From Eledone cirrhosa (lineage: Eukaryota): a stretch of 64,000 bases of DNA. Location of the stretch: contig OZ024742.1 in assembly GCA_964016885.1 (NCBI GenBank), positions 191,580,001-191,644,000 on the forward strand, written 5' to 3'. Below are positions 43,558 to 47,136 of this stretch, piece after piece. Position 1 is the stretch's first letter. Every line of letters begins with the position of its first letter. The notes under the pieces are model-generated. The model had not been told where the DNA came from. It did no database searches and was given only the letters and a program-made list of their open reading frames with translations. A program made the translations under genes and the position numbers.

Positions 43558-43716
43558 ATTGGAATAAATGCTCTGAAATAGCGATATATATGTGAATATA
43601 GACATAGAATATTCGAAAATATTCTGTATGTTTATAATAAACATTTTGAAGACCTAATCGCTATAGAATAGAATACGTCACGTATTACAATTAGATTCTC
43701 GATAAAAGCAAGGGAA

Positions 43717-43759
43717 GTAATCTACGCGTTTCATTCTTGTTAGAAATCATCAGGACTAC
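43717..43759 (-). ncRNA. Minimal type I hammerhead (also at 44027, 44337, 44647, 44957 on the minus strand)
   Basis: Reverse complement of the 45363-45405 motif. Confidence 0.85.
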
Positions 43760-45362
43760 ATATCCAGTGCTTTTATCGAGAATGACACAGCTAGAGACTT
43801 ATAGAATACTTAGCTGTGTACAGGAACTGGTTTGAAAGAGCGGTTGCCGGTCCGGCAGAAATTAGAAATTGGAATAAATGCTCTGAAATAGCGATATATA
43901 TGTGAATATAGACATAGAATATTCGAAAATATTCTGTATGTTTATAATAAACATTTTGAAGACCTAATCGCTATAGAATAGAATACGTCACGTATTACAA
44001 TTAGATTCTCGATAAAAGCAAGGGAAGTAATCTACGCGTTTCATTCTTGTTAGAAATCATCAGGACTACATATCCAGTGCTTTTATCGAGAATGACACAG
44101 CTAGAGACTTATAGAATACTTAGCTGTGTACAGGAACTGGTTTGAAAGAGCGGTTGCCGGTCCGGCAGAAATTAGAAATTGGAATAAATGCTCTGAAATA
44201 GCGATATATATGTGAATATAGACATAGAATATTCGAAAATATTCTGTATGTTTATAATAAACATTTTGAAGACCTAATCGCTATAGAATAGAATACGTCA
44301 CGTATTACAATTAGATTCTCGATAAAAGCAAGGGAAGTAATCTACGCGTTTCATTCTTGTTAGAAATCATCAGGACTACATATCCAGTGCTTTTATCGAG
44401 AATGACACAGCTAGAGACTTATAGAATACTTAGCTGTGTACAGGAACTGGTTTGAAAGAGCGGTTGCCGGTCCGGCAGAAATTAGAAATTGGAATAAATG
44501 CTCTGAAATAGCGATATATATGTGAATATAGACATAGAATATTCGAAAATATTCTGTATGTTTATAATAAACATTTTGAAGACCTAATCGCTATAGAATA
44601 GAATACGTCACGTATTACAATTAGATTCTCGATAAAAGCAAGGGAAGTAATCTACGCGTTTCATTCTTGTTAGAAATCATCAGGACTACATATCCAGTGC
44701 TTTTATCGAGAATGACACAGCTAGAGACTTATAGAATACTTAGCTGTGTACAGGAACTGGTTTGAAAGAGCGGTTGCCGGTCCGGCAGAAATTAGAAATT
44801 GGAATAAATGCTCTGAAATAGCGATATATATGTGAATATAGACATAGAATATTCGAAAATATTCTGTATGTTTATAATAAACATTTTGAAGACCTAATCG
44901 CTATAGAATAGAATACGTCACGTATTACAATTAGATTCTCGATAAAAGCAAGGGAAGTAATCTACGCGTTTCATTCTTGTTAGAAATCATCAGGACTACA
45001 TATCCAGTGCTTTTATCGAGAATGACACAGCTAGAGACTTATAGAATACTTAGCTGTGTACAGGAACTGGTTTGAAAGAGCGGTTGCCGGTCCGGCAGAA
45101 ATTAGAAATTGGAATAAATGCTCTGAAATAGCGATATATATGTGAATATAGACAGAATATTCGAAAATATTCTGTATGTTTATAATAAACATTTTTCGAA
45201 TATTCTATGTCTATATTCACATATATATCGCTATTTCAGAGCATTTATTCCAATTTCTAATTTCTGCCGGACCGGCAACCGCTCTTTCAAACCAGTTCCT
45301 GTACACAGCTAAGTATTCTATAAGTCTCTAGCTGTGTCATTCTCGATAAAAGCACTGGATAT

Positions 45363-45405
45363 GTAGTCCTGATGATTTCTAACAAGAATGAAACGCGTAG
45401 ATTAC
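45363..45405 (+). ncRNA. Minimal type I hammerhead (also at 45673, 45983, 46293, 46603, 46913)
   Basis: gtagtc-CTGATGA-t-ttct-aaca-agaa-t-GAAA-cgcg-TA-gattac; palindromic ACGCGT stem III; predicted cleavage after 45399. Confidence 0.85.
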
Positions 45406-47136
45406 TTCCCTTGCTTTTATCGAGAATCTAATTGTAATACGTGACGTATTCTATTCTATAGCGATTAGGTCTTCAAAATGTTTATTATAAACATACAGAA
45501 TATTTTCGAATATTCTATGTCTATATTCACATATATATCGCTATTTCAGAGCATTTATTCCAATTTCTAATTTCTGCCGGACCGGCAACCGCTCTTTCAA
45601 ACCAGTTCCTGTACACAGCTAAGTATTATATAAGTCTCTAGCTGTGTCATTCTCGATAAAAGCACTGGATATGTAGTCCTGATGATTTCTAACAAGAATG
45701 AAACGCGTAGATTACTTCCCTTGCTTTTATCGAGAATCTAATTGTAATACGTGACGTATTCTATTCTATAGCGATTAGGTCTTCAAAATGTTTATTATAA
45801 ACATACAGAATATTTTCGAATATTCTATGTCTATATTCACATATATATCGCTATTTCAGAGCATTTATTCCAATTTCTAATTTCTGCCGGACCGGCAACC
45901 GCTCTTTCAAACCAGTTCCTGTACACAGCTAAGTATTCTATAAGTCTCTAGCTGTGTCATTCTCGATAAAAGCACTGGATATGTAGTCCTGATGATTTCT
46001 AACAAGAATGAAACGCGTAGATTACTTCCCTTGCTTTTATCGAGAATCTAATTGTAATACGTGACGTATTCTATTCTATAGCGATTAGGTCTTCAAAATG
46101 TTTATTATAAACATACAGAATATTTTCGAATATTCTATGTCTATATTCACATATATATCGCTATTTCAGAGCATTTATTCCAATTTCTAATTTCTGCCGG
46201 ACCGGCAACCGCTCTTTCAAACCAGTTCCTGTACACAGCTAAGTATTCTATAAGTCTCTAGCTGTGTCATTCTCGATAAAAGCACTGGATATGTAGTCCT
46301 GATGATTTCTAACAAGAATGAAACGCGTAGATTACTTCCCTTGCTTTTATCGAGAATCTAATTGTAATACGTGACGTATTCTATTCTATAGCGATTAGGT
46401 CTTCAAAATGTTTATTATAAACATACAGAATATTTTCGAATATTCTATGTCTATATTCACATATATATCGCTATTTCAGAGCATTTATTCCAATTTCTAA
46501 TTTCTGCCGGACCGGCAACCGCTCTTTCAAACCAGTTCCTGTACACAGCTAAGTATTCTATAAGTCTCTAGCTGTGTCATTCTCGATAAAAGCACTGGAT
46601 ATGTAGTCCTGATGATTTCTAACAAGAATGAAACGCGTAGATTACTTCCCTTGCTTTTATCGAGAATCTAATTGTAATACGTGACGTATTCTATTCTATA
46701 GCGATTAGGTCTTCAAAATGTTTATTATAAACATACAGAATATTTTCGAATATTCTATGTCTATATTCACATATATATCGCTATTTCAGAGCATTTATTC
46801 CAATTTCTAATTTCTGCCGGACCGGCAACCGCTCTTTCAAACCAGTTCCTGTACACAGCTAAGTATTCTATAAGTCTCTAGCTGTGTCATTCTCGATAAA
46901 AGCACTGGATATGTAGTCCTGATGATTTCTAACAAGAATGAAACGCGTAGATTACTTTCCTTGCTTTTATCGAGAATCTAATTGTAATACGTGACGTATT
47001 CTATTCTATAGCGATTAGGTCTTCAAAATGTTTATTATAAACATACAGAATATTTTCGAATATTCTATGTCTATATTCATATATATATATATATAAAGTT
47101 ATGTATGTATATATATACATATATATATATATATAT

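Follow-up and report, generated by a model that had tools for sequence, protein, structure and literature searches.

A head-to-head array of hammerhead units

The 64,000-nucleotide stretch of Eledone cirrhosa DNA analysed here (the window; contig OZ024742.1, positions 191,580,001 to 191,644,000) contains an array of 310-bp units that carry hammerhead ribozyme motifs and lie within a TA microsatellite. A preliminary description of the locus had presented the array as a near-perfect multimer with a 310-bp period and about 11.4 copies. Period and copy number are borne out (5.3 + 6.1 = 11.4 units, 99% matches), as are the three variants listed at the time (a 2-nt deletion near 45155, A at 45628 and T at 46958), the 11 hammerheads (11/11 cores intact) and the (TA)n tracts on both sides. 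What does not hold is the single tandem run: the array consists of two opposed arms joined head-to-head, with the strand switching at 45193-45195 from minus-strand units on the left to plus-strand units on the right, and the two arms form a 1,602-nt inverted repeat.

Units are numbered from the first base 3' of the predicted ribozyme cut, with 45710-46019 as reference unit. The (TA)n tract at 42835-43557 is the left half of the target and is followed by the left arm (43558-45195, minus strand), which runs leftward over 5.28 units from a 5' end at unit position 76 to a 3' end at position 165, here called a 'long' end. Its last 35 nt (43558-43592, minus strand; unit positions 131-165) are found at the left outer end only and correspond to the tail of Penelope-like elements (PLEs) as described in PMC8557442 and PMC11167929. 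Five type I hammerhead motifs lie in this arm (43717-44999, minus strand), at 43717-43759 and every 310 nt thereafter, with a predicted cut 3' of 43723+310n. The two arms share a 3-nt overlap of microhomology at the junction (45193-45195). From there the right arm (45193-47079, plus strand) extends over 6.09 units, from a 5' end at unit position 104 to a 3' end at position 130, a 'short' end, and contains six type I motifs (45363-46955, plus strand) at 45363-45405+310n. The cuts that had been placed after 45399+310n are confirmed as predicted sites for this plus-strand arm. The right half of the target, again (TA)n, occupies 47080-47141. The unit has a GC content of 34% by base counts, and the claim that it has no open reading frame (ORF) of 60 aa or more agrees with a longest stop-to-stop frame of 59 aa inside the units; across the junction the longest frame is 61 aa.

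Every unit contains the core CUGAUGA...GAAA...GUA. The 6-bp stem I and the palindromic helix III are present as first described; in addition, stem I is lengthened by a 16-bp helix that closes the hammerhead domain, exemplified by the pairing of 45649-45664 with 45722-45737 (plus strand). Stem II consists of a U.U pair plus four pairs, and helix III of one pair plus a palindromic loop that is predicted to be able to pair between two copies. The comparison with Rfam that had been proposed for the unit's hammerhead gave no match at gathering level and a sub-threshold match to Hammerhead_HH9 (19.2 bits, E 0.087). As a circle, the monomer is predicted to fold better than shuffled sequences (z -4.8 for the sense and -5.8 for the antisense strand, 60 shuffles each); in the ensemble stem I forms and stem II forms weakly, with pair probabilities of 0.13-0.16. 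Comparison with 8 copies of a sister family, B, which retains the core, revealed compensated changes at four pairs over 13 bp of the closing helix and at two pairs of stem II. By its sequence features, that is, a short, low-GC, ORF-less tandem unit with a hammerhead motif per unit and dispersed copies, the element would be classified as a non-LTR retrozyme (LTR, long terminal repeat). As a separate observation, 17/123 arrays of the family have a fixed 1-base insertion (C or T) at unit position 3, two bases past the predicted cut, which would bulge stem I and is possibly a ligation scar or the mark of a tuned ribozyme.

Insertion footprint of the family

The window array has many relatives. An exact 30-nt core occurs 4,593 times genome-wide and its reversed control not at all, so the array is not a product of chance; with four tolerant positions freed, the core is found 18,218 times, and again the reversed controls give 0. 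Arrays are spread over C1, C2 and C3 with individual flanks, and their arms range from 0.2 to over 27 units of the 310-nt monomer. TA-flanked ends on the forward strand number 655 long and 613 short, which translates into at least about 1,200-1,300 insertions. The search for other (TA)n-flanked arrays suggested in the preliminary description thus yields over a thousand insertions, of which the window array is one young example.

The arrangement seen in the window recurs throughout the family. Among the first 10 arrays listed by core alone, 8 were minus-then-plus, 1 was cut by a gap and 1 was single-armed. On C1 between 1 and 169.5 Mb there are 76 long and 77 short ends; all divergent pairs within 20 kb (50/50) combine one long with one short end, and 53 ends are unpaired. 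Arrays read directly, a set that overlaps the C1 pairs, follow the same rule (74/74). When 40 of the unpaired ends were fetched, 29 proved to have a second inverted arm and 11 were single-armed; 28 of the 29 second arms could be resolved, and by reading all of them had the other end type. Replication used 60 of 226 loci, selected by one long end only: 55 were two-armed and 5 single, 2 were cut by gaps, and in the 53 resolved arrays the partner end was short in every case (53/53; 51 classified by script, L239 and L249 by reading, with L226 ending 18 nt short). Each insertion therefore uses one of each of two end sites, near unit positions 130 and 165 and spaced by about 35 nt. Arms with long and with short ends do not differ in length (p 0.21), and the lengths of the two arms are weakly correlated (0.20).

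Most ends (236/252) run into TA repeats, in loci that were selected by a TA-flanked end; the 10 arrays selected by the ribozyme core mostly show TA too, and contigs of run X2 likewise break into TA at both end sites. An inverted, 5'-truncated copy with a 30-40-nt tail at one end is the signature of PLEs (PMC8557442, PMC3846280). In vitro, a PLE protein, predicted to be dimeric, nicks and extends both strands, and two internal starts of reverse transcription define the tail (PMC11167929). In arms, tail and microsatellite target, the window array and its family carry the full PLE insertion footprint; a target-site duplication would be masked by the (TA)n.

Template, mechanism and alternatives

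To compare the two arms within single insertions, 123 two-armed arrays were analysed. Of the first 91 loci, 74 passed a filter that required both ends to fall at positions 115-175 and the junction gap to be smaller than 60 nt; the replication contributed 49, once L218 and L239 (internal breaks) and L246 (a duplicate of L245) had been left out. These arrays hold 47 haplotypes, and two templates drawn at random would match in 14.5% of cases (0.145); a clear disagreement between arms is found only in L171. Private variants are fixed in both arms of 15/123 arrays, over up to 25 units; the singleton rate is 4.0e-4 per base.

Clustered A>G changes in the sense strand are the expected trace of ADAR hyper-editing after reverse transcription. 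In this context, array L214 is informative: on a known haplotype background it has 14 A>G changes that are identical in every covering unit of both arms (4.5 + 3.2 units), and all 9 genomic occurrences of a 30-nt stretch that includes five of these changes lie at L214. Since a linear multimer would be edited differently from unit to unit, L214 likely represents one ADAR-edited monomer that was copied repeatedly. The predicted fold of the monomer leaves half of the 14 A>G sites (7/14) unpaired, and it may be that editing took place in the long duplex of a folded-back read-through transcript of both arms.

Fixed and singleton variants differ across these arrays. Substitutions that hit the core or break a helix, with helix classes taken from the predicted fold, make up 1/46 of the fixed and 47/128 of the singleton changes (p 7e-7), a difference that held in each set separately and also without A>G (1/22 against 45/120, p 0.002). 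This sparing of predicted helices by the fixed variants, together with the compensated pairs against family B, supports selection on the RNA fold. On the hammerhead strand, A>G accounts for 24/46 fixed substitutions and 8/128 singletons; the recurrent A>G sites include unit positions 20, 259, 276 and 295. Singletons instead show 28 T>C against 8 A>G along the element strand in both arms, an excess from which we infer misincorporation by the reverse transcriptase (RT).

The model that we consider probably correct is PLE twin priming combined with rolling-circle reverse transcription of one RNA, a predicted circle. Arrays would be transcribed, and the palindromic helix III would allow neighbouring hammerheads to cut as a dimer; the monomer of 310 nt, sometimes adenosine-to-inosine edited, would be ligated to a circle. 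A Penelope-like enzyme would then cut both strands of a TA microsatellite, and both ends would prime reverse transcription on one RNA monomer, the PLE RT/GIY-YIG dimer using a different internal start site for each DNA end (~130 and ~165, a spacing of about 35 nt). Each cDNA would pass the ligation point and go round the circle a variable number of times, until the two free cDNA ends are joined by short complementarity, as in LINE-1 (long interspersed element 1) twin priming, and filled in. On balance we also lean, with less assurance, towards the fuller statement that the arrays record rolling-circle reverse transcription of a ribozyme-made circle by a two-headed PLE enzyme, with ADAR edits as the main source of heritable variants. 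Family-wide ends, haplotypes and L214 support the earlier view of a very young retrozyme with a single-template rolling-circle origin and PLE machinery. One template per array stands; one simple run of reverse transcription does not, as each arm has its own fixed 3' end. Nothing here supports the term 'replicon' in the sense of RNA-to-RNA replication.

Several observations weigh against this model. The arms of L171 differ at one site. In L060, L073, L186 and L225 both arms carry a variant in the unit of the same number, counted from the 3' end, and not in all units, a pattern that does not derive from a monomer circle and needs multimeric templates, joint template switching or conversion; in L073, the clearest of the four, the first two units of both arms, counted from the 3' side, share one haplotype and the following units have another, so that this array records either a multimeric template or both RTs switching template together. 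Several long arms have variants in two units that are not adjacent, and L245 and L246 share a junction and differ in unit number, so changes at the DNA level, or assembly, also alter arrays. As to editing, the fixed A>G excess is modest when L214 is removed (13 against 5 T>C, p 0.03) and no significant ADAR neighbour preference is seen (p 0.33); that editing is a general source of variants is accordingly likely and less firm. The helix comparison depends on a fold that is itself predicted. A search of 50 GIY-YIG loci (150 of 10,596 candidates scored) found no coding PLE whose pseudo-LTR (pLTR) is homologous to the unit, and the matches from that search are non-coding relatives. Finally, hammerhead cleavage was reported to be dispensable for a PLE in vitro, uncut RNA being the main substrate (PMC11167929), and eight of nine Xenopus retrozyme dimers remained uncleaved in vitro (10.64898/2026.07.22.740005).

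These two reports, together with the same-position mosaics of the four arrays, speak for an alternative in which the templates of PLE twin priming are for the most part linear transcripts of older arrays, long and uncut, with circles as a side route or absent. We regard it as unlikely. Linear transcripts cannot place a new variant in every unit of both arms, as seen in 15/123 arrays; the edited stretch of L214 has no parent array in the assembly; and of the non-fixed variants that could be tested, most do not recur at the matching position of the other arm. Three runs of unknown kind (X1, X3, X6) each gave one 340-nt cycle contig at a depth of 10-15, which tandem DNA or trace carry-over would give as well as a circle.

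Under a second alternative, a cut linear monomer would be re-entered by an RT that jumps repeatedly from its 5' to its 3' end, with no covalent ligation. Such jumping would explain the fixed variants and L214 equally well, and the fixed 1-nt insertion near the cut could be a jump scar as much as a ligation scar. The predicted cut site itself argues otherwise: only 4/246 arm 5' ends fall 5 nt or less from it, where 7.9 would be expected, and 1,153 readable passes over it contain 4 private substitutions and no private indel. The lack of private indels and of 5' ends enriched at the cut favours a closed circle over end-to-end jumping, which we consider improbable. The distribution of 5' break points was uniform in the first set (p 0.13) and non-uniform in the second (p 0.009).

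The junctions bear on a further proposal, inversion by self-priming or fold-back on an antisense template, hypothesized for head-to-head PLEs in PMC3846280, or by inverted duplication at the DNA level. Exact mirror junctions occur in 4/123 arrays, one of them on a 17-nt palindrome, against 0.4 expected by our own arithmetic; they suggest a minor fold-back class and as such also count against the circle model. Apart from these four, the 5' break points of the two arms are independent (11/123 within 10 nt, 8.3 expected). The tail always sets one outer end apart from the other, the arms of L073 match when counted from their 3' ends and not from the centre, and the fixed A>G excess lies on the hammerhead strand in both arms. 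Antisense self-priming is consequently disfavoured for most insertions, and as a general explanation it is very improbable. Joining by short complementarity, as the twin-priming model has it, is supported by the junctions without insert (92/123), 50 of which overlap by at least 2 nt (50/92, with 18% expected); five junctions join on the unit's own inverted repeats of 9-17 nt, and one array has caught an unrelated, GC-rich insert of 272 bp at its head-to-head junction (L037:3099-3370). Least credible of all, and largely refuted, is an ordinary satellite, PLE terminal-repeat debris amplified as DNA or an assembly artefact with an incidental ribozyme: some DNA-level block duplication is visible (L036, L245/L246), but this reading is opposed by the fixed ends of the arrays and their dispersal, the strand asymmetry of the variant spectra, the selection acting on RNA helices, a PLE ORF upstream of an arm in only 1/151 loci and the breaks of run X2 contigs into TA at the two end sites.

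Relatives and known systems

No PLE ORF lies in the arms, and the one same-strand PLE ORF within 1.5 kb upstream of an arm among the 151 loci is 850 nt away. The family is not an autonomous endonuclease-positive (EN+) PLE. A candidate partner, without sequence similarity to the unit, is a young coding PLE family represented by L121, L114, L117 and L127 (G000:C1:97884500-97893500 and others), which encodes an RT with a C-terminal GIY-YIG domain in copies of 90-99% amino acid identity. PLEs of the L121 type have a U.U-type hammerhead in their 3' repeat, and L121 repeats the layout of the retrozyme arrays: two copies lie head-to-head, and the short and the long end fall about 127 and 167 nt beyond its own hammerhead cut, nearly the distances seen in the family.

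Sister family B (L131-L160, L082:2449-2864), with 1,314 exact motif matches, is 75-78% identical to the unit over the 3' hundred bases. It uses the same two end sites; its hammerhead is distinct and has a longer helix III. Its copies are about 72-91% identical to one another. The idea that it might be the pLTR of a PLE was rejected, as no RT or endonuclease was found upstream in 30 loci; it is an older sister family instead.

Twin priming is known from LINE-1, where two target-primed cDNAs from one RNA are joined head-to-head through microhomology. LINE-1 combines a poly(A) start with a variable internal site, whereas here both starts are internal and fixed, and both arms cover the same sequence many times. 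EN+ PLEs resemble the family in the inverted 5'-truncated copy, the 30-40-nt tail at one end, the microsatellite targets, the hammerhead upstream of the 3' end and the two RT start sites (PMC8557442, PMC11167929, PMC3846280, PMC4209133). They differ from it in that the family lacks an ORF, contains whole 310-nt units in its arms and has no detectable pLTR homology to the coding PLEs examined. A strict rule of one long and one short end per insertion is not stated for EN+ PLEs in the available text of these papers.

With metazoan non-LTR retrozymes the family shares a non-coding, low-GC tandem unit of 150-450 bp with a type I hammerhead per unit (PMC7229834; 10.64898/2026.07.22.740005). Two axolotl ribozymes have similar features, HHR_Amex1 a weak palindromic helix III and HHR_Amex2 a U.U where helix II begins, and for both of them cleavage is better in dimers (PMC7229834). 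Cleavage and circles have been shown for metazoan retrozymes and are predicted for the present family. Their link to PLEs was drawn from co-occurrence and pLTR homology; here it comes from the insertion footprint. Metazoan retrozymes are described as head-to-tail repeats, the words 'inverted' and 'microsatellite' occurring 0 times in the text of PMC7229834 at hand, and the accessible part of the preprint 10.64898/2026.07.22.740005 reports no inverted arms, fixed ends or edited arrays. Circle-templated, more-than-unit reverse transcription by PLEs was proposed in PMC4209133 and PMC7229834. Retrozyme papers propose, but do not demonstrate, circle-templated multi-unit cDNA and a PLE enzyme; PLE papers call tandem and inverted insertion and the origin of the tail undefined. 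Our searches, made in an open-access library, turned up no paper that deals with the family, with PLE twin priming or with edited arrays of retrozymes, and among the papers retrieved on octopus and hammerhead ribozymes none describes such a family by title or start of abstract.

Over a thousand near-identical insertions make these events accessible to statistics: one tail and one template per insertion, a sense-strand template and no scar at the ribozyme site. L214 acts as a natural barcode for the repeated reading of a single monomer on either side of a break, and would be an instance in which RNA editing has turned into heritable change in the DNA of a mobile element. The 310-nt unit with its mapped start sites also offers a substrate for in vitro PLE assays.

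Two further elements were noted. A short TA-flanked inverted element (L120:7030-7205, L122:5131-5330, L116:177) has a core nearly identical to that of the family and ends about 35 nt past the cut; the antisense of unit positions 226-255 resembles the 3' half of its hammerhead. Elsewhere in the window, LINE-type retrotransposon fragments with zf-RVT and AP-endonuclease-like Pfam hits lie at 7836-9176 (plus strand) and 22247-25533 (minus strand).
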